This document shows, piece by piece, positions 31,468 through 50,243 of a stretch of DNA of 64,000 bases. Source of the stretch: a virus (lineage: Duplodnaviria > Heunggongvirae > Uroviricota > Caudoviricetes); the IMG/VR virus record IMGVR_UViG_3300013936_000289, positions 152,064 through 216,063 of that record; one strand, written 5' to 3'. Below the pieces are notes generated by a model, which saw nothing but the letters and a program-made list of their open reading frames with translations, was not told the DNA's origin and ran no database searches. Numbering within the stretch: the first letter of the stretch is position 1; each line of letters starts with the position of its first letter. The position numbers and the translations under genes were made by a program.

Positions 31468-32132
31468 TGAAAGTACAAATTAGAAGAGGGGTGTTTGAAA
31501 CGAACTCAAGTTCAACACATTCTTTACAAATTACACATGGAACAATTAATGATGTAAAAGATATTGTATATAAAGCTATTTTTGAGCAATATAAGGATAA
31601 TATGGACTGTGGTATATTTAATCCAAAGGATTATATTATAGAACATACATTTATTCTTCGTGGTATTGATTTCGAAAATGGTGATGAAATGACTAATATT
31701 TATTATATCATTAATAATTGGGTTGCTAAACTTCAATATATTGCAATGGAATTAAATAATAATGCATATTATATTGAAGATTATAATAGAGCTGAATATA
31801 GAAACCATTATTTTGAGGATAATCATGATGATTGGTTAGAAGATACAGAAGTATATAAGAAGTTTGTAGAGTATATAAAGAAGATTGCAAAACAACATGA
31901 GTATGATATTCAAGATGTTAAGAATCAACTTGAATATGGTTCATATGTTGAATTTACAAAAAATACAGATACAAATAAAAAGTTTTTTGAAAATATTGGT
32001 GAAAATGGTGGTTGGTTAACAGTAGAAAAATTCAATGAATATTTTTGGAATATTATGGATGATAATAATACTATTACTTATGCCGATGAAGCTTATGCAC
32101 TTTATTATAAACCAAAGATTTATATTATTTAA
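31467..32132 (+). CDS. VFETNSSSTH-motif protein 2 (221 aa)
   Basis: N-terminus MKVQIRRGVFETNSSSTHSLQI; TAATG coupling to the upstream gene. Confidence 0.85.
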   Translation: MKVQIRRGVFETNSSSTHSLQITHGTINDVKDIVYKAIFEQYKDNMDCGIFNPKDYIIEHTFILRGIDFENGDEMTNIYYIINNWVAKLQYIAMELNNNAYYIEDYNRAEYRNHYFEDNHDDWLEDTEVYKKFVEYIKKIAKQHEYDIQDVKNQLEYGSYVEFTKNTDTNKKFFENIGENGGWLTVEKFNEYFWNIMDDNNTITYADEAYALYYKPKIYII

Positions 32133-32156
32133 TAATTATTAATTTTATAAAATAAA

Positions 32157-32720
32157 ATGAAAGTACAAGTTAGACGTAGTGTATTTGAAACAAATTCAAG
32201 TTCAACACATTCTATTTCCATTATTAAGAAATCTGATATTAATGAATTTCCTGATAAAGTAATATTTGGTAAAGGCGAATTTGGATGGGATTTTGATATT
32301 CATTTTGACACTGCTACTAAAGCAGAATATCTATGGGAAGCAATTACAAGTTGTTATTGGAATAATATTGATAAAGTAAATAATGCAATTAAATCAATTA
32401 CAGATATTCTTGCAAAACATAATATTAAAGCACTATTTCCATATGCTGCTAATATGAAAGTTAAAGTTCATAAATATGATGATGGTAGTGAATATACTTA
32501 TATTAAATTTATGAATAATGATGATGAAGAAGATAGTGGTTATATAGATCATGGAAATGAAGTAGGTGATTTTCTCGAAGATGTTATAAGTAATGATAAA
32601 AAACTTATGAATTATTTGTTTGATTATAATAGTTATGTATCAACAGGTAATGATAATAGTGATGAAGAGTTGGATTGTCCAAATTTTGGAAAATCATGGG
32701 AATACTATAAGAGTAATTAA
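32157..32720 (+). CDS. VFETNSSSTH-motif protein 3 (187 aa)
   Basis: N-terminus MKVQVRRSVFETNSSSTHSISI. Confidence 0.85.
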   Translation: MKVQVRRSVFETNSSSTHSISIIKKSDINEFPDKVIFGKGEFGWDFDIHFDTATKAEYLWEAITSCYWNNIDKVNNAIKSITDILAKHNIKALFPYAANMKVKVHKYDDGSEYTYIKFMNNDDEEDSGYIDHGNEVGDFLEDVISNDKKLMNYLFDYNSYVSTGNDNSDEELDCPNFGKSWEYYKSN

Positions 32721-32738
32721 AATATATAATAATATATA

Positions 32739-33041
32739 ATGAAAATTCAAGTAAGGAAAAGTGTATTTGAAACTAACTCAAGTTCTACACATTCATTGAC
32801 ATTTGCATCAGATGATGAATATAATGGATGGAAAAATGGAACATATGTTCTTGATAGAGATCATAATAAATTAGTTTCAAAAGATTCTATATCAGAGGAA
32901 GATATTACAGAAGATAGCTGGAGATATAAATCATATGATGATTACTTCGGTGATTATGATCTAGAATCTTATGATAAATCTTATACAACTAAAAGCGGTG
33001 AAATTGTTCATGTATTCGGTAAATACGGATATGATGGATAA
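32739..33041 (+). CDS. VFETNSSSTH-motif protein 4 (100 aa)
   Basis: N-terminus MKIQVRKSVFETNSSSTHSLTF. Confidence 0.85.
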   Translation: MKIQVRKSVFETNSSSTHSLTFASDDEYNGWKNGTYVLDRDHNKLVSKDSISEEDITEDSWRYKSYDDYFGDYDLESYDKSYTTKSGEIVHVFGKYGYDG

Positions 33042-33737: not shown

Positions 33738-33775
33738 ATAAAGGATAGAGATTCTTATTTCTCTATCCTTTCCTT
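33738..33775. terminator. bidirectional terminator between convergent genes
   Basis: aaaggatagaga / tctctatccttt stem overlapping the stop codon of 33755-34225. Confidence 0.75.
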
Positions 33776-34225
33776 TACTTCTTCTATAAAATCACAATAG
33801 TTATATAATTTATTACAAATACAATTATCTGACATCATATAACTACCACATTTTTCACATGGTGATTTAAATAATTCTTTAAGTAAATCTTTTTTACTTA
33901 CATTCTTTCCATATTCAACACCTGCTCTAAAAATCAATTCATATTTGTTTCTCTCTAATTTAGATATATTAGGAAATCTTTTATCTAAATAAATATCTAT
34001 TGATTTTTCATCAGCAGATTTTTCGTCTTTTACTTTTGATATATTGAAACTTACTATACCTGGTTCAGTTTCAGTTGGTCTTGTAGAACCTGTAAATGAT
34101 ATATTATATTCTCTTTGATATTCAGGATCCCACACTTTAAGTTTTGCATTATCCCATTCAGAATCATTATAAATCATTGCAATATCCTTCAAACCATGTA
34201 TACTTGGATATTTGTACAAACTCAT
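33755..34225 (-). CDS. hypothetical protein with C-terminal Cys cluster
   Basis: 156 aa; PCEKCG..C.C motif; starts immediately after the TnpB omegaRNA. Confidence 0.7.
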   Translation of the reverse strand: MSLYKYPSIHGLKDIAMIYNDSEWDNAKLKVWDPEYQREYNISFTGSTRPTETEPGIVSFNISKVKDEKSADEKSIDIYLDKRFPNISKLERNKYELIFRAGVEYGKNVSKKDLLKELFKSPCEKCGSYMMSDNCICNKLYNYCDFIEEVKERIEK

Positions 34226-34231
34226 AGTTTT

Positions 34232-34380
34232 GTTTTCAATTAATTTTAAAAACCTGTGTTTCTTGTTTCATAGACACACTACTTTTTAGTATAATTACAT
34301 GAATGTAATTTCTTTCATCCATAGTTGGTATCTCCGCAAGCGTAAATTCGGGTAAACTCAACCCTATTTAATATTTTATA
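34232..34380 (-). ncRNA. putative TnpB omegaRNA scaffold
   Basis: Blocks ATAGGGTTGAGTTT.CCGAATTTA.GCTTG.GGAGATA and TATGAAACAAGAAA.A.AGGTTTTTA are conserved with the 48930-49053 copy; boundaries approximate. Confidence 0.65.
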
Positions 34381-34384
34381 TAAA

Positions 34385-35518
34385 TTATAAATTAATTTGT
34401 CTTAATCCTTCAGTTAAAATATTTAATGAAGCATTATAATCTCTATCTATTAGAGATCTACAATGTGGACATATCCAGTCGCGTTCATTTAATTTTAAAC
34501 TTTTATAAATATATCCACAATTGTGACATGTTTTAGAAGAAGGATAAAATCTATCTATAATCATTAATTGTCTTCCATTCTATCTACATTTATATTCTAA
34601 CTAACGTCTAAATTCATAGAAACTTAAGTCCTATATAGATTTAGCTAATTTATGATTAGACATCATACCATTTACATTTAAATCTTCAATACAGATAACT
34701 TGGTTCTCGTTAACTAATTTTGAACTAATTTGATGTAAATATGTGCTTCTTTGATTAGCTATTTTTTCATGAACGTTAGCTAATTTAATTCTAACTTTAT
34801 TTCTATTATTACTTCCTTTCTACTTTTTAGAAAGTTTCCTCTATAATTTCTTTAATTTCTTTTCTTGGTTTTTATAAAAATGTTTATTCTCATATCTATT
34901 TCCATTAGAATCTACTATAAAGTCTTTAATACCTAAATCAAGACCTATTACTGTATCTAACTTTTCTTTTTTATAAATATTATACTCAATACAAATAGAT
35001 AGATAATATTTTTCAGTAGATGTTTTAGTAAGAGTAATAAAATGGATTTTATCCTGATTATGATTTAAATATATTTCATCTCTTTTTGAACATTTAAATA
35101 ATATATTCTATAACTATTTAATTAATGTTATCCTATTACCATTAATTTTCTTTTTCTTAAATTTAAATATAGTATTTGTAAATCTACATGTTTGTTTAGT
35201 ATCTTTCTTTGATTTAAATTTAGGATAACCATTATGTAATTTAAAGAAATTATCATATGCTTTAATCATATCCATTATAGATTGCTATAAACACTAAGAA
35301 TAAACATCATTTAAAAAAGAATATTCATTTAGTTTCTTTAAATTAGTTAAATATTTACCTAACTGTGATAAAGAAACAGATTGTTTATTCTACTCATACT
35401 ATGACTTCTTATAATACAATAATTTATTATATATAAGTCTACAACAACCTAACTGTTTAGAAATAAATTCTTTCTAAACATTATCAGGATATATTCGTAT
35501 TTTAATAGACTTTAACAT
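34385..35518 (-). CDS. tnpB: TnpB (IS200/IS605-family) RNA-guided endonuclease, 377 aa, TAG=Gln
   Basis: Manual translation: SIKIRIYP, GCCR.IYN, GLDLGIKDF (RuvC D), IEDL (E), CHNCG..CPHC zinc finger and DRDYNA (D); no tnpA nearby. Confidence 0.93.
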
Positions 35519-35728
35519 AATATAATAAAAAATCGTTTATATTTTAATTTGTATAAAATTGGTAGGTTGATACAAATTATTAATATAAACGATCTATAAA
35601 TATCTTTAATTATATATTATATTCAAATTATAAAAATAGTTTAAACCAACCTACCAAAGTTATTAAACTTATTTCTTATATTATTTATCTAAATTATTTT
35701 TTAAATGAAAAATATTTTCTATAATTAA

Positions 35729-35968
35729 TTATTTTTTATCATCTAAAAAATCAACATCTAAAATATCATCTAAATCAATTTTATTAAAATCAATTTCAAA
35801 TGGTTTTCTATTTTTTATAATTTTATCGGTTTCTTTTCTAATTAAATTTTCTATTTTACCTATTAAATTAATAGATTCAACAACAGAAAGTTTATATGTA
35901 TTTTGAAGATATTTTTTTAATTCATTAAAAATATCTGGTTCTTCTTTAACATTCATTTCATAAATCAT
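35729..35968 (-). CDS. hypothetical protein
   Basis: 79 aa ORF. Confidence 0.55.
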   Translation of the reverse strand: MIYEMNVKEEPDIFNELKKYLQNTYKLSVVESINLIGKIENLIRKETDKIIKNRKPFEIDFNKIDLDDILDVDFLDDKK

Positions 35969-35972
35969 ATTT

Positions 35973-36296
35973 TTAAGGTATTGTTAAATTTATTATTTGT
36001 TTATATATATTTTTTTCATGTTCTGTTTTAAACATATCATCCCAATAATTTCTCCTTACTATAAGATATGGTCTAATAATAATATCTGTATAATTTCCTG
36101 ATGCTATTGAGCCTAATCCAGATGATATAATTTCATCAAAATATAAATCAGATTTATTGTTTTCTATATATTCTATTGCTTTTCTTAAATTATTTGTTGC
36201 ATCAGAAACAGAATCATATTTATATCCTGTATATACCCATGACATTATAACAGAAAAATATGTCCGTTCAACATGTTTCTTTTTAAAATTTATCAT
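35973..36296 (-). CDS. hypothetical protein
   Basis: 107 aa ORF. Confidence 0.6.
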   Translation of the reverse strand: MINFKKKHVERTYFSVIMSWVYTGYKYDSVSDATNNLRKAIEYIENNKSDLYFDEIISSGLGSIASGNYTDIIIRPYLIVRRNYWDDMFKTEHEKNIYKQIINLTIP

Positions 36297-36407
36297 CTCT
36301 ATATTTTATATTAAATAATTAGATATTAGTTTATTTTATATATAAAAAATGGTTAAAGAATATTCTCTAATACTCTTTAACCATTATAAAAAAACAGTAG
36401 GAACTTT

Positions 36408-36629
36408 TTAATCTACATCAATGTAGAAGTCTCTTTCACAAGTAACACAATGAGCATGTTCTTGACCATTCATATTATCATAACCAAAATCAAGAACCTC
36501 AGATGAACCACAAAGAGGACAAGGTTCATTAATATAGTTAACATTAGATTTAATGTTGTTAACTATAATTATTCCTACTGTAAGAATAACCACAAGAAGT
36601 GTTATTTGTATTTTAAGAGACTTATTCAT
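36408..36629 (-). CDS. membrane-anchored zinc-ribbon protein
   Basis: N-terminal transmembrane segment, CPLCGS..CVTC. Confidence 0.65.
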   Translation of the reverse strand: MNKSLKIQITLLVVILTVGIIIVNNIKSNVNYINEPCPLCGSSEVLDFGYDNMNGQEHAHCVTCERDFYIDVD

Positions 36630-36704
36630 ATCTTCGTTATTTTAATTGTTCATTATTTTATTAACAATACAAAGATACATATTTTATTTTAAATAAAAAA
36701 ATAT

Positions 36705-37448
36705 TTAAGAAAAAACTTCTTTAAATTTCTTATAATTAATTCCTCCCGGTATTGCGAATATAATGGCTTCAAAATGATATTTAGAAGATCCCAATAATTC
36801 CTTAAATACTTCAGCAACAAATTGAGGATCATTCTTAAATACTCCGCATCCAAATGCACCAAGAACCAAATTCTTTTGTTTATGTTTCTCTGCAATATCA
36901 AGAATAAATTTTATTCTATCATTCATAGCTTTCATCGCATAATAAATATGTCCTTCATAATGTGAAAGATTTGGTGCTGGACATGTAATTACATCTACAG
37001 AAATAAAATTATCAGCAACTCTATTAAAAATAATATTTGGAGAATAGATAGCAAAATTCTTATATAATCCGCCATTAGTATTTTGTCGATTATGTTCATA
37101 ATATGTATTAAATTTTTTATCGGAGATTACATTATATAAATCACTTGCATGACATAATGCTTCTTCTTGAGCTATCGCACCTTTAATGAAACCTCCACCA
37201 GGATATTTATAGCTTGAAAAATTCAATACACATAAATGTTTATCTTCTCCATACTTAAAAACTGCATCTTCTGTCTTTATATCTTCTACAATAATATTTC
37301 TTTTATCTAAAACATTATCATCCTCTGTATATACAACAGAATCTCTAATAGAAGTTTGAATCATAGGATGAAAAGAATTTTCCATTTCTTCTATATGATT
37401 CTTAGCTGTTAATTTTCTATCTTCTTTAATATACGGTTTAACCATCAT
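36705..37448 (-). CDS. TIGR02452-like microbial PARG/macrodomain protein
   Basis: VLNFSSYKYPGGGFIKGAIAQEEALC, DVITCPAPN and LVLGAFGCGVFKNDP motifs; ATG start at 37448 preferred over GTG at 37541. Confidence 0.9.
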   Translation of the reverse strand: MMVKPYIKEDRKLTAKNHIEEMENSFHPMIQTSIRDSVVYTEDDNVLDKRNIIVEDIKTEDAVFKYGEDKHLCVLNFSSYKYPGGGFIKGAIAQEEALCHASDLYNVISDKKFNTYYEHNRQNTNGGLYKNFAIYSPNIIFNRVADNFISVDVITCPAPNLSHYEGHIYYAMKAMNDRIKFILDIAEKHKQKNLVLGAFGCGVFKNDPQFVAEVFKELLGSSKYHFEAIIFAIPGGINYKKFKEVFS

Positions 37449-37525
37449 ATTCTTTAAATTATTGAAATAGGTTCTGGTATAATAATTTATTAAATACCAA
37501 AACCATAAATTCTTTATATTAAATA

Positions 37526-37798
37526 TTACTCGATTCCACATAGAGCAATAACATTATTCAACTCTTCAACTGTTGTAGCATATCCTATAGAAGAACGCTT
37601 AATAATAGCACCACTCTCATTACACTTCCAACAATTAATATTGAATGTAAGTTTATTACTCAATGGAAAATATTCCTGTTCTACACTAACTCGCCACTCA
37701 GGAGATTCATTATTAGTCTTATAAAAACGACACAAAACACGATCAGGATGATTTGTTTCATATCCATGATCTAAAAGATATTCCTTTGTTAATTCCAT
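37526..37798 (-). CDS. hypothetical protein
   Basis: 90 aa ORF. Confidence 0.6.
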   Translation of the reverse strand: MELTKEYLLDHGYETNHPDRVLCRFYKTNNESPEWRVSVEQEYFPLSNKLTFNINCWKCNESGAIIKRSSIGYATTVEELNNVIALCGIE

Positions 37799-37804
37799 TT
37801 TTAA

Positions 37805-38179
37805 TTACTTTATTTTAAGTGTTAATATTTTATTAAAAAATCTAAATACATACTTAAGACCAAACAACCATACAAATAACATCCATAAAGCTGTAAAAAA
37901 TTCTTTAAAGAAATCATATATATTAGATACTGTTTGATTTAAACATTCTTCTTTTTCAGAATCATTACTATACTCTTCAACTAACTTAAACAATATAATA
38001 TAATTAAATATTGGTACTATTGTTAATATAGTTAAAGATGGAATTGATATAAATTCCAAATTATTAAAATAATCATATAATGACGAATTCTTTTTCAATG
38101 TAAAATAAGGTATTATATAAAAAATATATAATCCTACAATTACTGGTACAAAATGTAATATCAAAAATATATTCATCAT
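37805..38179 (-). CDS. hypothetical membrane protein
   Basis: Three hydrophobic segments. Confidence 0.6.
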   Translation of the reverse strand: MMNIFLILHFVPVIVGLYIFYIIPYFTLKKNSSLYDYFNNLEFISIPSLTILTIVPIFNYIILFKLVEEYSNDSEKEECLNQTVSNIYDFFKEFFTALWMLFVWLFGLKYVFRFFNKILTLKIK

Positions 38180-38185
38180 AAACTT

Positions 38186-38740
38186 TTATTTGCTAAAATA
38201 AATTAAATAATATCGTTCCTCTGGAAAAAATACCTTTTTAAATCCTACACGTTTCTTATATTCTTCAAAAGGTAAATCTTCTATTTGAGGATTATAATGA
38301 TAATCTTCTTCAATATGTTTGCCATCTTCTGACTTTATACAAATATCATGATGATTAACATTATTATCATTATCACTACAATTAGATACTTTATCCTTAT
38401 ATATTATACCTTTCATATAGATCGGTTTATGTACAATTACATCATCAGAATCTGTTTGAAAATAATTATAATATCTATATGTAGCATTATTTCCTGTTAT
38501 TAAAACAGGTTCATCACTACTTATAAATCGTATAGGTTTAAACATTAAATAATGTGTCCAATTTATAAAAAAATAGCATATAATAAAAATTATAATTCTT
38601 GAAAACCATTTCTTAAATGGACCTGGATCATTATATTGTACAATATTATCATATACTGATATACATATAAAAAGTATTATAGTAAAACATAATAATACTA
38701 AACATACAAAAAATGTAAATGCTATATAAGTTGCTACCAT
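38186..38740 (-). CDS. hypothetical membrane protein
   Basis: Two N-terminal hydrophobic segments. Confidence 0.65.
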   Translation of the reverse strand: MVATYIAFTFFVCLVLLCFTIILFICISVYDNIVQYNDPGPFKKWFSRIIIFIICYFFINWTHYLMFKPIRFISSDEPVLITGNNATYRYYNYFQTDSDDVIVHKPIYMKGIIYKDKVSNCSDNDNNVNHHDICIKSEDGKHIEEDYHYNPQIEDLPFEEYKKRVGFKKVFFPEERYYLIYFSK

Positions 38741-38742
38741 AA

Positions 38743-39483
38743 TTACTTAATCATTTTAGCTGAAACATCATAACCTAACGTAATATTGTAAGTTTCTTCA
38801 TAATGCTTAACCAACTTTTCATTCTGAGACCTTACAATATTAATATAATTATTACGAGCAATTCTAAAATCTCGTTTCTTATTATCTGTTACAAAATACA
38901 TAGTTGGAAGCATTCCATAGATTAATCCCTTTATTTTCTTACCATTATCATCTACTACTTGCTTATTATAAGGAATAAGTGTAGCTATACGATATAAATG
39001 CTCATTTTTCTTAAGAGTTAAATAAGGAATATTTGAATAAAGTGTAACTTTATCATTAATTTTTGAAAACTTCTTTTTCTTCTTATATACAGTTGGTTCA
39101 CCACCAAACAAATCATGTTGAATAGCTTCAAATGATTTAGTTCCTACTATATTTTTTGTATCAATAGTTACACCAATATTATTAAAAAAATTCTTCTTTG
39201 TATTATTATTTTTCAATACAGATTTTGATACCTGTGCATATAAAATAATATCATCAAATGAAACATTCTTAATAAATTTATCTTTAAACTCATCAATAGT
39301 TTTATTAATAATATCTTTAACTATTTTTTGCGCATTAATAACTTCATCAACAGAATAATCATTCATATTACTAAGAATATTATATATATTCTGCAATGTT
39401 TCTATATCAACATTATCCATTTTCTTAAGAGCATCACTTACATATGGATAAAATTCCTTAACAATTTCTTTATTATTTTTCAT
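38743..39483 (-). CDS. hypothetical protein
   Basis: 246 aa ORF. Confidence 0.7.
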   Translation of the reverse strand: MKNNKEIVKEFYPYVSDALKKMDNVDIETLQNIYNILSNMNDYSVDEVINAQKIVKDIINKTIDEFKDKFIKNVSFDDIILYAQVSKSVLKNNNTKKNFFNNIGVTIDTKNIVGTKSFEAIQHDLFGGEPTVYKKKKKFSKINDKVTLYSNIPYLTLKKNEHLYRIATLIPYNKQVVDDNGKKIKGLIYGMLPTMYFVTDNKKRDFRIARNNYINIVRSQNEKLVKHYEETYNITLGYDVSAKMIK

Positions 39484-39540
39484 AAACTTTATCTAATTAA
39501 CAACAAATCTATAAATTATAGTCTAAATTATTGAAAATGT

Positions 39541-39768
39541 TTACTTTTGTTCAAACCAATGTGCATAACATGCAACTGAATTACTAAGTCTATTTGCATC
39601 ATTCAATATTCCTATGATAGCAACCTTCTCTGCTTTTGGAAGATTGTCGAAATGATTATCAAAATCACCTTCCTGAGGTTCCCATACGATATTATAAATA
39701 GTATCTTTAATTAACTCGATTTGTGGAATCAAATCATTTATCTTCTTATAACGTTCTTCTTTATTCAT
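39541..39768 (-). CDS. hypothetical protein
   Basis: 75 aa ORF. Confidence 0.6.
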   Translation of the reverse strand: MNKEERYKKINDLIPQIELIKDTIYNIVWEPQEGDFDNHFDNLPKAEKVAIIGILNDANRLSNSVACYAHWFEQK

Positions 39769-40067
39769 AACTTCTTAATTATTTTAACGTTCTTAATTAA
39801 TGGTTCACCATCTGTTCCTCTGCCATCTAATAAATCTCCTGTTACCAAATATTTGTTACCGGAATAATATCTAATTAAATGAATAAAAGTATCAAACCCT
39901 GTTTCATTTATAGGATTAGGTAAAACTGGTGAATATGTTCCATTTATATTTTTATGAGCTTCATAAACAGATACTCCTTTTTCTTCACCTATTTTTTCTT
40001 CGCCTCTCCAAAAAATTGAAGACCTCTCATTTTTTGGAATATCATCAAATCTATAAAATAACAACAT
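39765..40067 (-). CDS. hypothetical phage protein (E.GVSVY..G.G.DGEPL type)
   Basis: 100 aa; recurrent phage motif. Confidence 0.7.
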   Translation of the reverse strand: MLLFYRFDDIPKNERSSIFWRGEEKIGEEKGVSVYEAHKNINGTYSPVLPNPINETGFDTFIHLIRYYSGNKYLVTGDLLDGRGTDGEPLIKNVKIIKKL

Positions 40068-40077
40068 ACATCATTAT

Positions 40078-40638
40078 TTAAACACAACCATTAAATTCGG
40101 CATTTTCCCATTTTTTTGCTTCTTCATAGTTAGCACATGCTTTATTATATTCTTTCTCTAATTTATTCTTATATTCATATTCAAACTCTTTTTCAATTTT
40201 TTCTCTAATACGAGTTTCTAATGAAGACTCAATATTCTTTAATACTTGTTTATCTACACTTAAAGTTTTACTAACATGTTTAGAAGTATCTTTAACTTCA
40301 TTTAACTCTTTATTCGACTTATCTGATAATGAAGAATCATTGCCAAATGAAAAAGACATATACTTATTAAATGATTTTGTTGATTTAGTAGTGACATTAT
40401 TATTTTTATTTTTCAAATTAACAAATCTCCCAAAATCATAAACAGTATTATAACGCATGAAATTATTATAAGCATTCTTACATATCTGATTATCACGTCC
40501 TCCACAATAAACATGTTTAATATGTTTCTTAACGAAAGAATTGCCACATACTGGACACTCACAAACTTCACCAATTCGCTTTGATAAATTTATATCATGA
40601 ATTTGGTTCATCTGTTTTTTTAATGTATTCTTATCCAT
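40078..40638 (-). CDS. zinc-finger-containing hypothetical protein
   Basis: CPVCG..YC..C motif. Confidence 0.65.
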   Translation of the reverse strand: MDKNTLKKQMNQIHDINLSKRIGEVCECPVCGNSFVKKHIKHVYCGGRDNQICKNAYNNFMRYNTVYDFGRFVNLKNKNNNVTTKSTKSFNKYMSFSFGNDSSLSDKSNKELNEVKDTSKHVSKTLSVDKQVLKNIESSLETRIREKIEKEFEYEYKNKLEKEYNKACANYEEAKKWENAEFNGCV

Positions 40639-40742
40639 AATAAATTACATTTTTTAATTTATAATTCAAAGATACACATATTATTATAAAATAAAAAATC
40701 ACAAAACTATAAATTAATATAATTTTGTGATTTTTATATAGA

Positions 40743-41669
40743 TTAAGTCATTTTAATACTATAACATAATTTCTTTTTTAAATTAGTTATATTTTTATAT
40801 TGAGTCTTTAAGCAATTTCCTATATATTTTCTTATTTCTTTTTTAACCTCTGTCTTCCATGAAGGATCTACAAGCATGCATCCTATATATAGATTACATC
40901 CTCTACTCATATTATCTCTTTCAAATGTTAAATCATATGGTATATTTTTTAAATTACCCATACTATTAACAATAGAATTAACTTCATCCTCTACATTAAA
41001 TAACATAGATGGTAATTCCGGTTGAAAATTTAATTCTTGTAATTTATGTGGACATCCGGTCCAATCATCCGGTAATACACTATTATTAAAATATAAAGAT
41101 AAGTTATTTTTTGTTATTGGAAATCCTTCTAATGAATTTACTTCTTTAATCCAATTTAAATAAATTTCGTTTTCTATATAAGACGGAAATCCTTTAAAAT
41201 CTTTTAATCTCCCATAACTAACTACAAAATCTTTTATTTTTAAAATACTTTTATATTTTTCAAAATCAAATAAATCTTTAATTGAATATACCTTATCAGT
41301 TTTATTTTCTAATGAAAATTCTAATACGTTCATACTAAAATGAATATCATAATCCAATAATATATCAAATAATTCTTTAAAATATTTTACATTTCCTTTA
41401 TATAATGAAATTCTAACATAACCTATGTTTATTCCATTCTTATAACTTTTTGATATTTCGGATAACTATGGTAATGTTTTATATGCGTTGAAAAATATTG
41501 CTAAATCATTATTCTCGGATCTATCTACTATCTTATCCAATAAAGGCTTTACAATATCAGTTGAACTTATTTTATCAAAAATCATATCAGAATTATCTGG
41601 TTTACTAATATCATCTAATATATCATCATCAAATAGAGATTCTATTAATCGTCTAATATTCTTATTCAT
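40743..41669 (-). CDS. ESLFDD-motif protein with short LRR-like repeats (308 aa, TAG=Gln)
   Basis: Track ORFs 41466-41669 and 40743-41357 join through TAG at 41466; LKDFKGFP and NSLEGFP repeats. Confidence 0.7.
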
Positions 41670-41676
41670 AATTAAA

Positions 41677-42236
41677 TTAAAACAATTTTAATTTATCACT
41701 TAATTCGCGTTCTGTCCACACCTGAAACTAAACTCCGCGTTTTTTAAACTCATATTTTGCTGCTCTCCATTTTGCTTGGTTAGTCAAAAATGTTTTCATT
41801 TCTCTATTATAACGATTAACTTCTTTTAACTTCGCTCCAGGTTTCAATGGTTCAGGTTTAATTGTTTGTGCATAAGGTTTAATCTCAATAAACACTTTTA
41901 TAACTTCACCATCTTTCTTTTTAAACTCAACCCACATATCAACATAATATTTTCTAATCTTCCAGTTCTAAGGATTATTTGGATCCAAATGATGTTGATG
42001 ACAATATTCCAAATTAGCAACAGGATCTCTATACTATATAGCACATGGTTCTGAACCAACTCTCAAAACCTAAGGATTTCTGTCACACCAATCCATAAAA
42101 AAAAAAAAAATTCCCACGAACTTCTATATTCGTTGGTTTTAGTCACCCATTTTTCTGGATGTTTTGGATGAAAATAACCTTGTTTAAACCTTGAATTTCT
42201 TGATGGTTTATGTTGATTTTTATAGCTTTCATTCAT
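41677..42236 (-). pseudogene. T4 gp4-like head completion nuclease, frameshifted at an A14/T14 homopolymer
   Basis: QGYFHPKHPEKW..YRSSWE[F]n then, in another frame, MDWCDRNP..GSE..YYVDMW..IEIKP..NQAKWRAA..F.VWTE. The two parts are 299 nt apart (not a multiple of 3); tract at 42097-42110. Could be an assembly error. Confidence 0.75.
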
Positions 42237-42239
42237 ATA

Positions 42240-43349
42240 TTAAATTTTTTTATTTTTTATGTATTCTTCAAATTTATTAATTAAATCTTCTTTTTTAACT
42301 GCAAATAGTTCCAAATAATTTAAATTATTTTCTTTTGCCGTATTTCTCTTATTGACATCTCTAACAGTCCATACATCAATAGCATGTGAATAACCTGTTT
42401 TATCTTTTCTTAACATTAATTCATTTAAACGTTCAATATCATTTTTATCATTAGGATTAAATGGATGATAACCATGTGACCAATAACCTTGCAATTCAAT
42501 ATACAAATCCAAACTTTTAATATAAAAGTCACAATGATATGGATATAAATCAGATTTATACTATCTTAATATATCATTTGCTCCATATTTATTACAAAGA
42601 TATTCATGTAATGATTCTTCTGATTTTGACTATCTGTATGAATTATGTTTTTTCTTTGAATCAAAATTTTTCTATAATATATCTTTATTCTACATAGGAT
42701 TTTCGCAACCGTATTTTTCAATCCAAGTTTCCTTAATATGTTCCTTCATACCTGGAATTTTAAAATTATGGTCTACTCCATATCTCTCTATACAGGTTTG
42801 CTTCATCTTTTCTAAACACTTTTTATTCTAAGCTGTATATGGAACACCTAATCTTTTTATATTAGTTTGCTTAACTTTTTCTTTTATTTCATCACACTAC
42901 GTAGGATATTTTGTACCATATCTTTTTAAACAGGTATCTTCTATTTTCTTCCTAACTTCTTGATAAAAATCTTTTCCCAAATATTTATATTCTGTTACTT
43001 TTCTTTTTCTTGTTTTTGATTTCTTCTATATAACATCTTCAAAATTCTATACACATTTCTATGAACAATATTCTCTAAATTTATGGTTATGATGAAATTC
43101 TAAAACTTTACCACATGCCTTACATTTAGGTCTATGTTCAATATGATGAAATATTCTATAAAAAGTTTCATATATGGATTCTGAATCCACATATCTATTT
43201 TCTATATATTCTTTAATAGTTGGATACTAATTTAAAAATATCTTACTTGTCCTACTAGGATTAATATCATTTTCTGTATTCTTTAATTTAAAATTCTATA
43301 TAATAAAATCATCAGTTATAATATCAGGAACTTCAAAATATTTTCTCAT
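42240..43349 (-). CDS. freestanding putative homing endonuclease (zinc finger, KxTxxxRYGV repeats, Vsr/DUF559-like nuclease; TAG=Gln)
   Basis: Manual read-through: CKACG..YCS.KC, about four repeats such as EDTCLKRYGTKYP and KQTCIERYGV, and C-terminal DFYIKSLDLYIELQGYWSH. Confidence 0.75.
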
Positions 43350-43522
43350 ATATTAAACTTTTATTTGTTTATTATATAAAATATATTTTTAATAGTTTAA
43401 CATAATTTAATAAAACTCAAAATTTGATACCATATCTTCTCCGTATCGCAATCAAATCTCTTTACCTTATAGTTATTAACCTTAATTAATTTTAACACAA
43501 TACAGAAGAAATATTCAATATA

Positions 43523-44434
43523 TTATTTTCTCCCATGTAATATAGGTTCATAATTACCTTGAAGTTGTCTAATAATATTAGATTTAAGTTTACCTTTAAC
43601 ATTAGGATTTTCCTCTATAAACATATTTTTTATATAATTCTTATAATATCTTAATTTACCAAATGCGTCATGATTTATAAAATTAACTTCCTTTATATCT
43701 AATATGTTTTCTGGTATATTATTAAAATGTAAAAGATGATCTATACCAATAAATTTCCACTCTGTATAATCAACGGTTAACCTATAAAGTTTTGTCATAT
43801 TCTATAAATTACTCCAATCAGTAACGGATTCAATAGGTTTATTATATAAAAAATCCAATATTCTAACGCTTCCTAATAATCCATTTATTGACTTAACATA
43901 AGAATTATTAAAATGAATATTTTTCAATGATATTGTTTCATTAATTCCTTCTAAATTTTCAAATATTCCGCCATATATAGAAATAGTATCAATATCAATA
44001 AATGTATTATTAAAATTATTAAAATTAAATTTTATATTAGGTATTCCATTTCTATCAAAATTCATATCTAATTCTAAATATCCTATATATAATTTTAATG
44101 TTGGATAACAATCGAACATATTACAAAATTTATCAAACTATTTCTAATCTTTAAAAGCTAAACTTAATTGTTTAAGATAAATCACATTACTATGATTAAT
44201 TTTCTTTTCTTCCTATAATCTTTCTATATATTTTTCAGAATTCCACTATCTATAAAATAAATCTAATTTATTACAATCATTTAAAAAATCATTAAACTAT
44301 TTTTCATCATTATAAACATTACTCAACGGAGATTCTTCATCATTATTAAGAATATCATCAGTTTCATCATCAAATAATGATTCATATAAAAAAGATAATT
44401 TTTCATTAATAGATTTATCAAAATTAAATTTCAT
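43523..44434 (-). CDS. ESLFDD-motif protein with LRR-like repeats (303 aa, TAG=Gln), paralog of 40743-41669
   Basis: MKFNFDKSINEKLSFLYESLFDD..; joins two track ORFs through TAG; ENLEG and KSINGL repeats. Confidence 0.7.
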
Positions 44435-44491
44435 TAAATTAAAAAAAGAATATTTGAATATTTATCTATATAATAAATGTATATAAAATTT

Positions 44492-44657
44492 AAAAAGAAA
44501 GTAACCAAAGAAAAAATAATCAAAAAGAAAAGAACCAAAAGAAAATTAAATTTCAAATCTAAATTTAATTAAAATAAAAATTGATCCTACAATATTTATC
44601 TCTCTAAAAATCTATGTTCAAAAAGAAAGTAGACAAAGAAAAAGAACCAAAAAGAAA
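44492..44657. repeat. purine-rich direct repeats in a divergent intergenic region
   Basis: AAAAAGAAAGTA(ACC/GAC)AAAGAAAA twice and AAAGAACCAAAA(A)GAAA twice. Confidence 0.5.
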
Positions 44658-45034
44658 TTTCATCAATAATATAAAATAAATTAATAATTAAATTTTTTAC
44701 ATATTATATATAATATCTATCTCAACCTTAAATACTAACATATTTATTATACTCAAGTTTTCAGAAAAAGTCTACATTTTTAAGAAAAAAGTTTAATTTT
44801 TATTAAAAATAATTTATAACTAATTGATAATCAATATATAATTTTTATTAATTTATACAAATTCTAAATAATTTTAATAAAATTTAAATTTCAATTATAA
44901 AAACTAAATTTCTTTATATAATTTCTTAAATATCTTAACCTCTCAAAATACCAGTATTTATTTTACTTACTTTTGTGAAAAAAGTCTACTATTTTTGAAA
45001 ATATTTTTTAAGTATTATTAATAATTATTTTGTT

Positions 45035-45062
45035 AAACTTTATTAACATATATTTATATAAT
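45035..45062 (+). promoter_or_regulatory. AAACT(T/A)-N16-TATAAT promoter class (representative of 11 or more copies)
   Basis: Exact 16-nt spacer at 7188-7215, 15506-15533, 16418-16445, 17081-17108, 22701-22728, 28354-28381, 36305-36332 and 43371-43398 (-) and 45035, 47742 and 49087 (+). Confidence 0.75.
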
Positions 45063-45087
45063 ATAAAAATTATTTTTAATATAAAGA

Positions 45088-45621
45088 ATGAGTTATAATA
45101 CTACAGTATAGTTTACAAGAGTTAGAAATGTTAAGTTGCCAAATAGAGCTAATAGTCATGATGCAGGAACTGATTTTTTCGTACCTTTTTATAATTAGGA
45201 ATTTCTTGTTGATTTGATTAAGAAAAATGAAGGTAACAAAATTTTCTATAATATTAAGGATGATGATTTGTTTATTACTATTCCACCTGGTGAACAAGTA
45301 ATGATTCCATCTGGTATTAAAGTTTGGATTAATGATAAAAGAACATATCTTCAAGCAACAAATAAATCAGGAGTTGCTTCTAAGTATCATCTTGATGTGA
45401 TGGCAAATACTATTGATGCAGATTACCAGGGAGAAGTTCATATTAATCTTTGTAATAATGGAAATACAGATATTACAGTTCAGACAGGTCAGAAACTTGT
45501 TCAGTTTATCCATCAGATTTATCTTGATACAGATTGGAAAGAAATGAGTGAAGATGATTATAATAAGATAGAGAAATCTGATAGGGCAGATGGAATGGCT
45601 GGTTCTACAGGAACATTTTAA
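45088..45621 (+). CDS. dut: dUTPase (177 aa, two TAG=Gln)
   Basis: DAGTDF motif 1, KSG motif 2, TIDADYQGE motif 3, KLVQ motif 4 and R..G..GSTG motif 5. Motif 1 is included only with TAG read-through. Confidence 0.95.
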
Positions 45622-45640
45622 AATAAAATTATATTAATAA

Positions 45641-46165
45641 ATGAAACAGAGATTACGAAATTTTGAGTTTGAATATAACGGTGAAAAATATTGGTATTCT
45701 CGTTCAATAACTGTTGCGACTTGTGTATTCTGTAAAGATTCAGATGGAAATTGGTGTGCATTAATTAATAAACGTGGTAAAGGATGTCCATCAAATGTAG
45801 GAAGGTGGAATGTTCCAGCTGGTTATTTGGATCATGATGAGGATTTGTGTCAATGTGGAATGAGAGAGACCTTTGAAGAAACAGGTATTTCTATCCCAAG
45901 AGTATTGATGAATTTTTATGCTATTAATTCAATTCCAGATACAAAGCGACAGAATGTAAGCGTAATTTATTATGCAATTCTTCCAGGAATAATAGATGAT
46001 TATGAATTAACAAGTGAACATTCTGAACCTAATGAAGTTGATGATATAATGTTTATTCCATTATCAATGATTTTTACATCTGATATAGATATAGCATTTA
46101 ATAATGATAATATATTATTAGATGTATATAATAAGGTTATTGTTAATTGTAATAATAAGAAATAA
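45641..46165 (+). CDS. Nudix hydrolase
   Basis: Nudix box PAGYLDHDEDLCQCGMRETFEETGI. Confidence 0.9.
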   Translation: MKQRLRNFEFEYNGEKYWYSRSITVATCVFCKDSDGNWCALINKRGKGCPSNVGRWNVPAGYLDHDEDLCQCGMRETFEETGISIPRVLMNFYAINSIPDTKRQNVSVIYYAILPGIIDDYELTSEHSEPNEVDDIMFIPLSMIFTSDIDIAFNNDNILLDVYNKVIVNCNNKK

Positions 46166-46276
46166 TTTTTCATGTTATTTTTAAGTTTTTAGTCTTAATG
46201 TATTATATTATTATAATATGTTAAGACTTTTTTATTTTATATTACATATAAAGAGTATAACTAATTAATATTATAA

Positions 46277-46660
46277 ATGAGCGTAAAGTTTAAAAATCAA
46301 AATAATACATTAAAGATATTTTGTTATACAGACATATCTATAGAAGAAGACGATTATGAAGATGATGTTAAAGTAATAACTGAAACTTATCATATATCAG
46401 CTAATTCTATAGAAGAAGCGATAGAAATATACATTAATAAGTTTACTGATATAGAATGGTATGATAAAAAGCGTGAAGATTTTTCTAGACAAGATTATTA
46501 TGATGCATGGATAGACCATAACAGGGAGAAAGCATATAAAACATATTTGAATAAATTAAAACGTGAAACTAAAAAACTAATGAAAGAATTTAAGGAAATT
46601 CCTGGTGTTTTTTATATCGGTAAACCATGTGTTCTTTTAAATACAAAGATAATAAAATGA
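46277..46660 (+). CDS. hypothetical protein
   Basis: 127 aa ORF. Confidence 0.65.
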   Translation: MSVKFKNQNNTLKIFCYTDISIEEDDYEDDVKVITETYHISANSIEEAIEIYINKFTDIEWYDKKREDFSRQDYYDAWIDHNREKAYKTYLNKLKRETKKLMKEFKEIPGVFYIGKPCVLLNTKIIK

Positions 46661-47049
46661 AAGTAAAGATTAATATTGAGAAACGTATTGATTTTAACCA
46701 TGATAATAAAATAGAGTTAAATGATGAGATAGATATAGATGATTCATTTTTTGATCAAATAACAAAGCCTTTAATTAATAAGAATAATAAGAAGAAATAT
46801 ATGTGGTATGCTACATTAGATGGTAAACTTATTCTTAATTATAAAGGTAAACATACATATACATCAGAGAAAAAACTTTATAATGGTATAATTGCGAATT
46901 TTGAGCAATTATTCAAATTATATAAAGTACCAAATTTAGTATATGATTCATTAACTACCGTTAAATTTGATTTTAATGAATTATTGGATAAACTTTTAAA
47001 GGAAAAGAGAATAATATTTCATAAGTTAGAATATGATTTAGTTGAATGA
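46657..47049 (+). CDS. hypothetical protein
   Basis: ATGA-coupled start at 46657. Confidence 0.6.
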   Translation: MKVKINIEKRIDFNHDNKIELNDEIDIDDSFFDQITKPLINKNNKKKYMWYATLDGKLILNYKGKHTYTSEKKLYNGIIANFEQLFKLYKVPNLVYDSLTTVKFDFNELLDKLLKEKRIIFHKLEYDLVE

Positions 47050-47052
47050 TTT

Positions 47053-47721
47053 ATGGATTGGAAACTTATAAAGGAATGTTTACCATTAAATATACGTGAA
47101 CATTATATATTATCTTTTATGCATGGATCTTATGTATATGGAACTAATAATGAAAAATCAGATAAGGATATTATTGTTATTGTAGATGATGATATTAAAT
47201 TAACAGATGATTATAATGGTATAACGGAACTTCATGTATTTGATGGAAATGCTATTGATTTTGATTTTCAGATTATCAATAATAATACATTTAAAAAGAT
47301 GCTATATGAACATCATATAATCGCGTTAGAGAGCTTATTTATGAAAAGTAGTATGTATGATAGTTTTGAAAAATTTAACTCGTTATACGCGAATTATTTC
47401 ATTCTTGATAAATGGAAATTAAGGAAAGTTATTTCTTCTATTGTTAATAACTCATATGCAAAATGTCATAAGAAATTAATTATAGAAAAAGATTATGATT
47501 TATATAGAGCAAAAAAATCTATTTTTCATTGTATAAGATTATATATGTTTGGTATTCAAATTGCAGAATATGGAAAGATATATGATTATAGTGAAGCAAA
47601 TTCATATTGGATAAAGATTCAAATGATGGGTAATAATTGGGATGAATATAAAACTAAGTTTAAACCTATATTAAATTCGTTGAGAAGTAAGTTAGTTAAA
47701 CTTTGTCCAAAACCAATTTGA
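47053..47721 (+). CDS. DNA polymerase beta-superfamily nucleotidyltransferase
   Basis: HGSYVYGT...SDKDIIVIV (GS..DxD) motif. Confidence 0.85.
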   Translation: MDWKLIKECLPLNIREHYILSFMHGSYVYGTNNEKSDKDIIVIVDDDIKLTDDYNGITELHVFDGNAIDFDFQIINNNTFKKMLYEHHIIALESLFMKSSMYDSFEKFNSLYANYFILDKWKLRKVISSIVNNSYAKCHKKLIIEKDYDLYRAKKSIFHCIRLYMFGIQIAEYGKIYDYSEANSYWIKIQMMGNNWDEYKTKFKPILNSLRSKLVKLCPKPI

Positions 47722-47790
47722 AAAATATTTCTATAAAATGTAAACTTTTTAAGAAGTTAATTTTATATTATATAAATAATTTTATTGTAT

Positions 47791-48924
47791 ATGATCAAAT
47801 CTATTAAAATAAGAATATATCCTGATGTTGCTTAGAAAGAATTTATTTCTAAACAATTAGGTTGTTGTAGATTTATATATAATAAATTATTAGATTATAA
47901 AAAATTAATATATAAACAATATAAGCAATCTGTTTCTTTATCATAGTTAGGTAAATATTTAGTTTCTTTAAGGAAGCAAGATGAATATTCTTTTTTAAAT
48001 GATGTATATAATGCATGTTTATAGCAATCAATGATAGATGTAATTAAAGCATATGATAATTTTTTAAAATCATATACATATTATCCTAAATTCAAATCTA
48101 AAAAAGATGCTAAACAATCTTGCAGATTTACTAATTCAATGTTTAAGTTTAAAAATAAAAAAATTAGAGGAAATAGAATAACTTTAATAAAGTAGTTAAA
48201 AAATATATTATTTAAGTGTTCAAGAAAAGATGAAATATATTTAAATCATAATCAAGATAAAATTCATTTTGTTACTCTTACTAAAACTTCTACAAACAAA
48301 TATTATCTATCAATATGTATTGATTATAATATTAAAGAAAAAGAAAAGTTAGATAATGTAATAGGATTAGATTTAGGAATTAAAGATTTTATTGTTGATT
48401 CAAATGGAAATAGATATGAGAATAAGCATTTTTATAAAAATCAAGAAAATAAATTAAAGAAATTATAGAGGCAATTATTTAAGAAATAGAAAGACAGTAT
48501 TAATAGAAATAAAGTAAGAGTTAAAATTGCAAAAGTTCATGAGAAAATAAAGAATTAGAGATTAAATTATTTACATCAAATAACTTCAAAACTAGTTAAT
48601 GAGAACCAAGTTATCTGTATTGAAGATTTAAATGTAAATGGTATGATGTCTAATCATAAACTATCTAAGTCCATATAGGAATTAAGTTTATTTGAGTTCA
48701 GACGACAACTTGAATATAAGTGTAATAGGTATAATAAAAATTTAGTTATAATAGATAGATTCTATCCTTCATCAAAGACATGTCATAATTGTGGATATAT
48801 TTATAAAGATTTAAAACTAAGTTAGCGCAAGTGGATATGTCCACATTGTAAATCTTTAATAGATAGAGATTATAATGCTTCTTTGAATATTTTATCAGAA
48901 GGATTAAGACAAATTAATTTATAA
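47791..48924 (+). CDS. tnpB: TnpB (IS200/IS605-family) RNA-guided endonuclease, 377 aa, nine TAG=Gln
   Basis: Fully translated by hand; RuvC D/E/D (GLDLG, IEDL, DRDYNA) and CxxC/CxxC intact; close paralog of 34385-35518. Confidence 0.95.
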
Positions 48925-48929
48925 TTATT

Positions 48930-49053
48930 TAAAATATTAAATAGGGTTGAGTTTTACCGAATTTAAGCTTGTGGAGATATGAATTATATATAAATTTAAT
49001 ATATAATGTATTTATGAAACAAGAAATATAGGTTTTTAGTATAAATAAAAACT
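48930..49053 (+). ncRNA. putative TnpB omegaRNA scaffold
   Basis: Conserved blocks shared with the 34232-34380 copy; perfect terminal hairpin GTTTTTA(49032-38)/TAAAAAC(49046-52). Confidence 0.65.
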
Positions 49054-49219
49054 AAAACTATGAAGAAGTTTATTTTTATAAAATGTAAACTTTTTAAGAA
49101 GTTTATTATATATTATTATGATAATGATTTTTAATAAATCAAATATTTTAAACAAATAATTTTTTAGTTAATAACAAATTTTAAATTAAAAGAAAAACTA
49201 TGAAGAAGTTTATTTTTAT
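49054..49219 (+). repeat. 26-bp direct repeat of the OmpA-gene start
   Basis: AAAACTATGAAGAAGTTTATTTTTAT at 49054-49079 and 49194-49219. Confidence 0.9.
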
Positions 49220-50243
49220 GTTGATTGCAATGTTTACATTTGCAATTGGTACAATTAATGCACAGGTACAGAATGATTATGCAGGTTCTAGTAAGTTTAC
49301 TGATAATGTTTCAGTAACACTTCAGGGTGGTGTTCTTACATCATTTGACAATTTCTATAGTGGTCATACAGCAATGGCACCTATTATTGTAGTTGGTGCA
49401 GATAAGTATGTAACACCATGGTTGGGATTTGGTATTGAAGGTCGTACACTTATTGGAACAGGTCATGGTAGTTATAATACATACACTGCATTTGATTATG
49501 TAAATGTAAGTGGTTATGGTAAGGTAAATCTTGCTAATGTATTTAAGTTTGATGGAACACGTAAGTTCTTTGAACCTGTTGTTTATACAGGTCTTGGTTG
49601 GGGTCATCAGACAGCAGGTTATGGTGCAGATCATAATAACTGGATGACTTATCGTGCTGGTGCAGAGTTTAATTTTAATCTTGGTAAGGAGCGTGCATGG
49701 GGTATTGTCGTAAATCCTTCTGTTGTATGGAATGATATTGATAATGGCAAGCTTGTAAAGAAGAATGGTAGTTTTGAGATTACTGCAGGTGTTGTTTATC
49801 GTTTCAAGAATTCAAATGGAACACGTTCATTTGCAAAGGCAAAACTTTATGATCAGACAGAGGTTGATGCTCTTAATAAAAAGATTAATGAACTTGAGTC
49901 TCGTGAGCCACAGGTAATTGAGAAGATTGTAGAGAAACCTGTTACAAATGCAAGTGGTTTTGCACAGAATGTATTTGTTGCACCATTTAAGTTTAATAGC
50001 TCAAATTTGAGTGCAAAGTGTAAGTCCGTACTTGATGCAATTCCTGAAGGAACAACTGTAGTTGTAGACGCTTATGCATCTCAGGAACCTAAGAGTACTA
50101 AGAAGCATAATAAGGCATTGTCTGATGCTCGTGCAACAGCAGTTAAGAAGTATCTTGAGTCTCGTGGTGTTAAGGTAACTGATGCTACAGGTCATGGTAT
50201 GGATGATGATTTTGGTCGTGTTGCTATTGTTACTGTAAAGTAA
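49200..50243 (+). CDS. OmpA-family outer membrane protein (signal peptide, beta-barrel, coiled coil, OmpA-like C domain), Bacteroidota type
   Basis: MKKFIFMLIAMFTFAIGTINAQ signal; amphipathic strands ending in AGVVYRF; F.FNSS and YAS.E...N..LS..RA.AV..YL motifs. Confidence 0.88.
   Translation: MKKFIFMLIAMFTFAIGTINAQVQNDYAGSSKFTDNVSVTLQGGVLTSFDNFYSGHTAMAPIIVVGADKYVTPWLGFGIEGRTLIGTGHGSYNTYTAFDYVNVSGYGKVNLANVFKFDGTRKFFEPVVYTGLGWGHQTAGYGADHNNWMTYRAGAEFNFNLGKERAWGIVVNPSVVWNDIDNGKLVKKNGSFEITAGVVYRFKNSNGTRSFAKAKLYDQTEVDALNKKINELESREPQVIEKIVEKPVTNASGFAQNVFVAPFKFNSSNLSAKCKSVLDAIPEGTTVVVDAYASQEPKSTKKHNKALSDARATAVKKYLESRGVKVTDATGHGMDDDFGRVAIVTVK

Follow-up and report, generated by a model that had tools for sequence, protein, structure and literature searches.

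The stretch analyzed here (the window) is 64,000 nt of a Lak-B Prevotella megaphage, taken from IMG/VR record IMGVR_UViG_3300013936_000289 and 99.4 to 99.8% identical to Prevotella phage Lak-B4, which served as its whole-genome proxy. It carries two tnpB genes, each followed by an omegaRNA scaffold and a predicted guide; their features are collected in Table 1. An earlier description made from the letters alone (the sequence-only reading) had proposed that these two cassettes act as RNA-guided homing endonucleases.

Table 1. Positions of the two tnpB cassettes, their RNA elements, and their predicted target genes
Feature	Position	Strand	Remarks
tnpB copy 1	34385..35518	-	377 aa; 12 TAG = Gln; D194/E278/D360; zinc ribbon
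tnpB copy 2	47791..48924	+	377 aa; 9 TAG = Gln; catalytic triad intact
Copy 1 target gene	33755..34225	-	156 aa, no Pfam match; start codon rebuilt by element end
Predicted guide 1	34206..34223	-	first 18 nt after AT of the 156-aa gene start codon
Copy 1 omegaRNA scaffold and IS607-type right end, ending AACTAT	34224..34368	-	pseudoknot covariation; 5′ end approximate
Copy 1 left part: eroded IS607 left end and conserved ~170-nt leader in the tnpA position	35519..35720	-	left junction approximate
Long hairpin ~13 nt before the tnpB start codon	35532..35593	-	RNAalifold consensus; both-side changes at columns 140/141
Variable long-range leader helix	35559..35657	-	arms 35645-35657 and 35559-35571, flanking the internal promoter
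AAACT..TATAAT promoter-like box within the element	35616..35642	-	conserved in alignment A2; absent from the empty allele
TAGATAAATA box, probably a late-type phage promoter derived from the tnpA promoter	35682..35691	-	invariant in alignment A2
ompA promoter region copy A, from which tnpB copy 2 is now driven; leader and left end absent	47732..47769	+	repeat
Copy 2 omegaRNA scaffold, with a shortened middle hairpin, and right end, ending AACTAT	48940..49061	+	sequence comparison, covariation
Predicted guide 2	49062..49079	+	18 nt = ompA nt 3-20
ompA promoter copy B	49077..49103	+	27-nt exact repeat of 47732-47758
The genome's own copy of target 2, behind ACTAT instead of AGTAT (predicted immune)	49197..49219	+	sequence comparison
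OmpA-family gene, target of copy 2	49200..50243	+	347 aa, no TAG

The TnpB proteins and their loci

The two TnpBs had been described as paralogs of 377 aa that are hidden under genetic code 11, and this was confirmed: both open reading frames (ORFs) are open solely with TAG read as glutamine, and the products are 82% identical. The claim of an intact RuvC triad and zinc finger likewise held, with D194/E278/D360 and two CxxC motifs in each protein. Both match the Pfam families HTH_OrfB_IS605, OrfB_IS605, and TNB zinc ribbon and pass the TnpB family model NF040570 (344 and 310 bits; cut-off, 100). With the IS607 TnpB model NF038280, they score 179 and 175 bits, below the curated cut-off of 350, as does a tnpA-linked TnpB on contig L192 (196 bits), which is described below; the IS200_TnpB model outscores NF038280 for all three proteins, yet stays below its own cut-off. 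The neighboring genes contain no TAG, versus 12 and 9 in the tnpB genes. In Lak phages, recoding is a mark of late genes, and for Agate phages, an intron endonuclease with recoding has been described (10.1101/2021.08.26.457843).

Lak genomes carry 2 to 5 such cassettes, and Lak-B4 encodes five TnpBs of the copy 1/2 type. The motifs are intact in 119 of 120 homologues, and the ratio of nonsynonymous to synonymous substitution rates (dN/dS) lies between 0.10 and 0.29, at about 0.18, for a dS of 0.5 to 0.6, indicating purifying selection. The copies mostly group by site; identity between sites is 70 to 91%, and none is near-identical to a copy at a different site. Copies 1 and 2 belong to a star-like clade, with no tnpA-linked member among those sampled. 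That the cassettes are inactive transposon relics, carried passively, is therefore hard to credit: mobility was not directly observed and some copies are degenerate (the HD scaffold and the truncated 169k end), but this dN/dS, the intact frames, and compensatory changes in leader and scaffold speak against decay. Solo tnpB genes without an adjoining tnpA were also seen in Clostridium phage c-st, Aeromonas phage phiA009, and Klebsiella jumbo phage phiKp_32 (L193 to L195); their TnpBs show 41 to 44% identity, and the solo pattern may reach beyond Lak.

At the copy 2 locus, the order is promoter, tnpB, scaffold, 20 nt of the ompA start, duplicate promoter, untranslated region, and ompA, while the empty alleles of Lak-A and Lak-C hold a single copy of the ompA promoter. 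The ATG at 49060 had been taken for a gene start; it belongs only to the 20-nt copy, and the real ompA starts at 49200, 140 nt on. Copy 2 is the sole truly free-standing cassette of the two, with its target 140 nt away. A paralogous gene start near position 2870 (minus strand) of the same genome, Lak-B4, has one mismatch to guide 2 and lies behind GTTAT, which constrains the looseness of target-adjacent motif (TAM) and seed.

At the copy 1 locus, orthologues of the 156-aa gene in Lak-A and Lak-C use the same start ATG. The left part of the cassette is absent from the empty allele of Lak-B7 and Lak-B8, and its leader is common to most Lak cassettes, with about 170 nt between the TAGATAAATA box and tnpB. 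AAACT(T/A)..TATA(A/T)T promoters had been placed upstream of both tnpB genes. Boxes of this type do occur there, at 35616-35642 and 47742-47769 (the pattern is found 15 times in the window, a raw count without a shuffled baseline). However, in the empty copy 1 allele, just a short spacer without a promoter separates the upstream gene from the 156-aa gene, so the promoter noted earlier belongs to the element. The picture of end-less inserts between a phage promoter and a start codon thus had to be abandoned: copy 1 brings its own promoter, and an IS607-type right end, AACTAT, is kept.

Leader, scaffold, and IS607-type ends

The copy 1 leader opens with a TAGATAAATAATAT box, as found before tnpA in the autonomous element L192. 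The TAGATAAATA box we take to be a promoter, from its resemblance to T4 late promoters. A leader helix of 8 to 13 bp is kept in 14 of 15 leaders through about ten different sequences, the exception being a chimera of two leader types; RNAalifold missed the helix because of alignment shifts, and it was detected by a per-sequence search. Of its two arms, the 5′ one precedes the internal AAACT..TATAAT box, and the 3′ one sits in the loop of the covarying hairpin just in front of the start codon. Since the arms straddle the internal promoter, long and short transcripts are predicted to fold differently, and such a two-state leader may have a role in timing. T4 homing endonucleases are timed by a comparable arrangement of promoter and hairpin (PMC2988022).

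Chimeric cassettes were observed at one and the same site in three comparisons (L187 versus L188, L182 versus L183 to L185, and L186 versus L027), with mismatched leader arms, a TnpB of another site's type, and a different scaffold loop. They point to recombination between cassettes at different loci, as judged from sequence.

Downstream of both tnpB genes, the omegaRNA-like scaffold with a variable internal hairpin and terminal hairpins, reported from the sequence alone, is conserved. The scaffold set, drawn from Lak genomes and metagenomes, comprised 29 distinct sequences. Pairing of the 5′ loop with the element end holds at 64 of 80 positions, through 16 distinct sequence combinations, whereas shuffles averaged 46, none of 20,000 reached 64, and shifted registers gave 20 to 30. 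The loop/end pairs covary in one register only (AGTTT/AAACT, AGCTC/GAGCT, AGTCT/AGACT, and TATTT/AAATA). Single-sequence folding was not significant (z scores, −0.87 and −1.47), so the structural claims rest on covariation. Searches of scaffold and leader against Rfam, at the gathering cut-off and at an E value of ≤5, returned nothing relevant; identity with the RAGATH-18 guide RNA (reRNA) was rejected, as its motif was unmatched downstream of tnpB even at an E value of ≤5. A scaffold without tnpB, flanked by a recoded duplicate of a gene 3′ end, was seen at 186602-186753 (minus strand) of Lak-B4, and also in Lak-B7 and L143; it could be served in trans by other TnpBs.

After the paired bases come AT in most copies or GT in a divergent subfamily, and then the match to the empty allele begins. 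Because the pairing register and two core bases precede this match, the element is read as ending in ..CTAT and the guide as beginning at the G of ATG. The guide had been placed directly 3′ of the scaffold; its start most likely is that G and not the A, with an uncertainty of one base, as 13 of the 14 sites of the copy 1/2 clade begin with G (9 of 14 lie at a start codon). Likewise, the repeated AAAACT-ATG, previously read as a gene start, is a real motif, but its AAAACT-AT is an IS607-type right end and the target supplies the G. In a further cassette (L045, m45), the guide starts with CTTTG inside a host-type promoter motif, TATGTATCTTTG, which is repeated across Lak genomes, and near matches at other promoters have 2 to 3 mismatches.

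The assignment of this end comes from relatives. IS607 elements of other phages that bear tnpA end in AACTAT and follow GTAT or TTAT, several of them before the G of ATG. A core dinucleotide is common to right end and target (CTAT versus DTAT; CTGT versus GTGT in the sister subfamily). In the IS607 element CboIStron, the TAM is TGGG and the end TCGG, with a common core dinucleotide, and discrimination of G from C has been shown (PMC10690162). Given the same AACTAT ends in tnpA-bearing elements and the CboIStron logic, AAAACT-ATG reads as the product of an insertion at TAT^G, with an IS607 right end restoring the start codon. On sequence grounds, each cassette is most likely a non-autonomous offshoot of an IS607-type element whose core is AT. 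The left end is short in copy 1, with one motif remnant, and missing in copy 2; left junctions vary across the clade, and the motif tally of left ends is weak, since the DNA is AT-rich. A conserved left-end terminus was not found, so hairpins at both ends, as in IS200/IS605 or IS1341, are not seen here.

In agreement with the sequence-only reading, no tnpA adjoins either copy, and neither a Y1 nor an IS607 tnpA was found in Lak-B4. Y1 TnpA (PF01797) had no match in 8 Lak records, and IS607 tnpA none in B4, A2, and G001 to G003. The 2-kb TAG-recoded contig L192 (JALFMW010000168.1) carries a full IS607 tnpA directly before tnpB. Its TnpA passes NF033518 (195 bits; cut-off, 110), and its TnpB, which shares 69% identity with copy 1, falls within the sister clade at 92 to 93% TnpB identity. 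This Lak-like contig was binned in a Clostridium metagenome-assembled genome and is probably a mis-binned phage fragment. With an autonomous TAG-recoded IS607 in the sister clade, TnpA transposition, in cis long ago or in trans, probably first took the new sites.

A second TAG-recoded IS607-like unit was seen in Lak-B7 (~515.5 kb), C1 (~17.5 kb), and A1 (~43.8 kb) (L052 to L054); it encodes a 201-aa serine TnpA and a 449-aa TnpB-like protein, has no evident downstream scaffold and no clean ends, and is absent from B4. As a mobilizer of copies 1 and 2, its tnpA was judged unlikely, because it is 36% identical to the cognate TnpA, its 449-aa partner differs, and B4 lacks it.

These observations bear on whether the cassettes are ordinary non-autonomous IS607 elements still moved by TnpA in trans, with TnpB only restoring excised copies and the start-codon position reflecting survivor bias at DTAT. 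The right end AACTAT is canonical for the IS607 group, several tnpA-bearing relatives sit before the G of ATG, the autonomous L192 belongs to the sister clade, clean left ends that match each other lie behind GTAT in two G001 cassettes, and another IS607 tnpA resides in Lak-B7, C1, and A1. Set against this, left ends in the copy 1/2 clade are cut off at different points or, in copy 2, missing; the TTCATT/AATGA end repeats of the sister clade, for which a role as TnpA sites is presumed, are absent from the copy 1/2 right ends; identity between sites peaks at 91%; and the Lak-resident tnpA is the distant one just described. We consider this explanation rather unlikely. Mobilization by a tnpA with canonical ends had been named as what would speak against homing; the right end is indeed canonical, and a tnpA of the cognate type was found, in the sister clade.

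Empty alleles, predicted targets, and probable homing

Empty alleles in related phages, proposed as a check, exist for both cassettes. Copy 1 is missing from Lak-B7 and B8, where the flanks are otherwise about 99.6% identical, and from Lak-A and Lak-C; B4, B7, and B8 have copy 2, which A1, A2, C1, and IMG/VR relatives lack. A usable empty orthologue was available for 13 sites. At 12 of these, including all five non-start sites, one or more alleles have TAT before the guide match, and CTAT never stands there. Unusable were the orthologues at 327k (71% identity), 317k, 186k, and four metagenome sites, and the element boundary at 169k is ambiguous. In the sister TGT subfamily, whose element end is CTGT, GTGT precedes the match at all 3 usable sites. 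From these alignments we infer a TAM of DTAT, as opposed to an element end of CTAT.

Guide 2 matches the ompA start of Lak-A1, C1, IMG/VR genome G001, and L172 to L174 at 18 of 18 positions behind AGTAT, while the window's own ompA has ACTAT before target 2, which would protect this allele. More generally, the resident copies of four duplicated or distant targets have a changed TAM or seed: copy 2 (ACTAT), 92k (TAT to TAC), the HD gene (synonymous ATT to ATA), and V1 (seed changes). At the HD-domain gene, the guide of a cassette with a divergent TnpB (L032; Lak-B4 515382-516515) matches conserved MWHMG codons ~170 nt from the insertion, and in the Lak-B4 allele a synonymous change removes the TAT present in A1, C1, and G001.

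Guide 2 also matches its own ompA start over 18 nt, and many guides begin at start codons, as might be expected if TnpB regulated its neighbor (ompA or the 156-aa gene) in a TldR-like manner instead of cutting. Yet the RuvC triad is intact, unlike that of TldR, the self-site lacks the motif seen at empty alleles, and guide 1 has no second target in its own genome with <3 mismatches; such a role is very improbable.

The B7/B8 empty copy 1 allele has no TAT and carries two synonymous guide mismatches, at ORF positions 9 and 12. Between the window and B7, 2 of 4 single-nucleotide polymorphisms in 525 nt fall in guide 1, and relative to Lak-B4 the count is 2 of 2 in 500 nt. Left-flank polymorphisms were disregarded, as the comparison there was ungapped and ran across an indel. 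By sequence, the guide changes fit either resistance or co-conversion of the guide tract from another lineage.

Taken together, the evidence makes it probable that the cassettes are non-autonomous IS607 derivatives kept and spread by RNA-guided homing between co-infecting Lak phages. The homing endonuclease proposed earlier thus retains its core (empty alleles, a consistent TAM, immune self-alleles, purifying selection, and clustering by site), but on a cassette that has retained a transposon right end. TnpA would have placed the element at each site long ago, in cis or in trans. Late in infection, as the TAG-recoded protein and the two-state leader suggest, TnpB-omegaRNA would cut an empty allele that bears the TAM in a co-infecting Lak phage; repair by recombination would then copy the cassette into the cut genome. 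Copy 1 would act at its own insertion site, like intron homing, and copy 2 would cut the ompA start 140 nt off, like intronless homing; own copies would be spared by C at −4 or by a recoded target.

Several observations weigh against homing as so described. A susceptible empty allele of copy 1 was sought and not found: none of the sampled empty alleles is predicted to be cut, each of the 22 contigs read that encode the identical 156-aa protein seemed to be filled, and the empty alleles in IMG/VR resemble Lak-A. At −4, the TAM may have G, A, or T. The right ends at 474k, 456k, DUF2828, and 317k are TTAT or GTAT and would be self-cut if DTAT alone were the rule, which makes it probable that different variants have different TAMs. 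The TAM tally is also less telling at start-codon sites, given that DT lies before about 54% of Lak start codons in any case. Finally, the sister clade has clean ends and an autonomous member; transposition in trans is plausible there and may also still apply to copy 1. Start codons account for 10 of 22 AT-core sites; across the genome, a crude ORF call puts 0.55% of DTAT sites there. At least in part, this bias can be put down to the survival of insertions that do no harm.

A stronger version of homing is a tentative possibility: the copy 1/2 clade may consist of fully transposase-independent, free-standing RNA-guided homing endonucleases of lytic phages, with a recognition motif that in effect includes the start codon, guides gained by recombination and not through TnpA, and timing by the covarying two-state leader and TAG recoding. 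Alternatively, the cassettes might benefit the phage through interference competition, by destroying co-infecting Lak genomes, with copying secondary. Long-term purifying selection, 2 to 5 cassettes per genome, guides in conserved gene starts, and the omegaRNA-only cassette kept with its recoded target duplicate in B4 and B7 would suit it, and phage PhiPA3 offers a protein homing endonuclease precedent (PMC11620839). However, the same sequence patterns are expected from homing, and guides always come from the neighborhood of the insertion; we regard interference as improbable.

Elsewhere in the window, four tandem genes at 30967-33041 (plus strand) have a paralogous N terminus in common (MK.Q.R..VFETNSSSTHS; repeat family D1), and a 369-aa TAG-recoded ORF at 42240-43349 (minus strand) with two DUF7487 matches is possibly a further mobile endonuclease-like gene.

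Comparison with known systems

Our literature search found no paper on TnpB in Lak phages. TnpA-independent drive by TnpB has been shown for plasmids (PMC11870625; PMC13565253), and a 2026 review considered spread into co-infecting phages theoretically possible (PMC13565253). Transposons and plasmids already provide examples of the mechanism; within the reach of the literature searches, the lytic-phage setting, the allele series, and the leader have no precedent. Alleles that are filled, empty, resistant, or recoded occur naturally at about 20 sites of this family, so that the conversion of a transposon nuclease into a phage homing endonuclease could be tested directly here. The predictions are a TAM of AGTAT or DTAT and cutting by guide 2 of Lak-A/C ompA but not Lak-B ompA. 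In addition, an RNA leader without an Rfam match occupies the tnpA position, and the family adds at least 120 compact TnpB variants, whose TAM is predicted to be AT-rich.

The Lak cassettes resemble CboIStron (Zedaveinyte et al., PMC10690162) in their serine-TnpA lineage, in G versus C just upstream of the common end dinucleotide, in a pseudoknot at the scaffold end, and in homing by double-strand break, which is predicted here. Unlike CboIStron, they have an AT and not a GG core, lack tnpA and an intron, have an eroded or absent left end, reside TAG-recoded in a lytic phage genome, and carry a structured leader in place of tnpA. With IS607 TnpBs that use RAGATH-18 reRNAs (PMC11061315), they share the IS607 association, a size of ~390 aa, a downstream guide RNA, and abundance in gut metagenomes; those systems are mostly chromosomal elements of Firmicutes with tnpA, and the Lak scaffolds do not match RAGATH-18.

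TnpB retention in IS200/IS605 (Meers et al., 10.1101/2023.03.14.532601), plasmid drive (Mears et al., PMC11870625), and IS1341 solo tnpB genes are alike in the right-flank guide, the cutting of element-free alleles (predicted for Lak), and the solo tnpB, and plasmid drive also in TnpA-free action in multicopy replicons, again a prediction for Lak. The Lak cassettes differ in that the related transposase is IS607-type and not Y1, and in their natural, putatively resistant alleles in lytic phages, recoded target duplications, and guides aimed 140 to 170 nt away. With SegB, SegF, and SegG of T4 (PMC2988022), they have in common an intergenic position, a cut site (predicted for Lak) in a neighboring conserved gene, an own allele that is resistant (likewise predicted), phage promoters, and an RNA hairpin near the translation start. 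The Seg enzymes, however, are GIY-YIG or HNH proteins that recognize their targets through protein, whereas the Lak cassettes are RNA-guided and derive their specificity from a transposon end.

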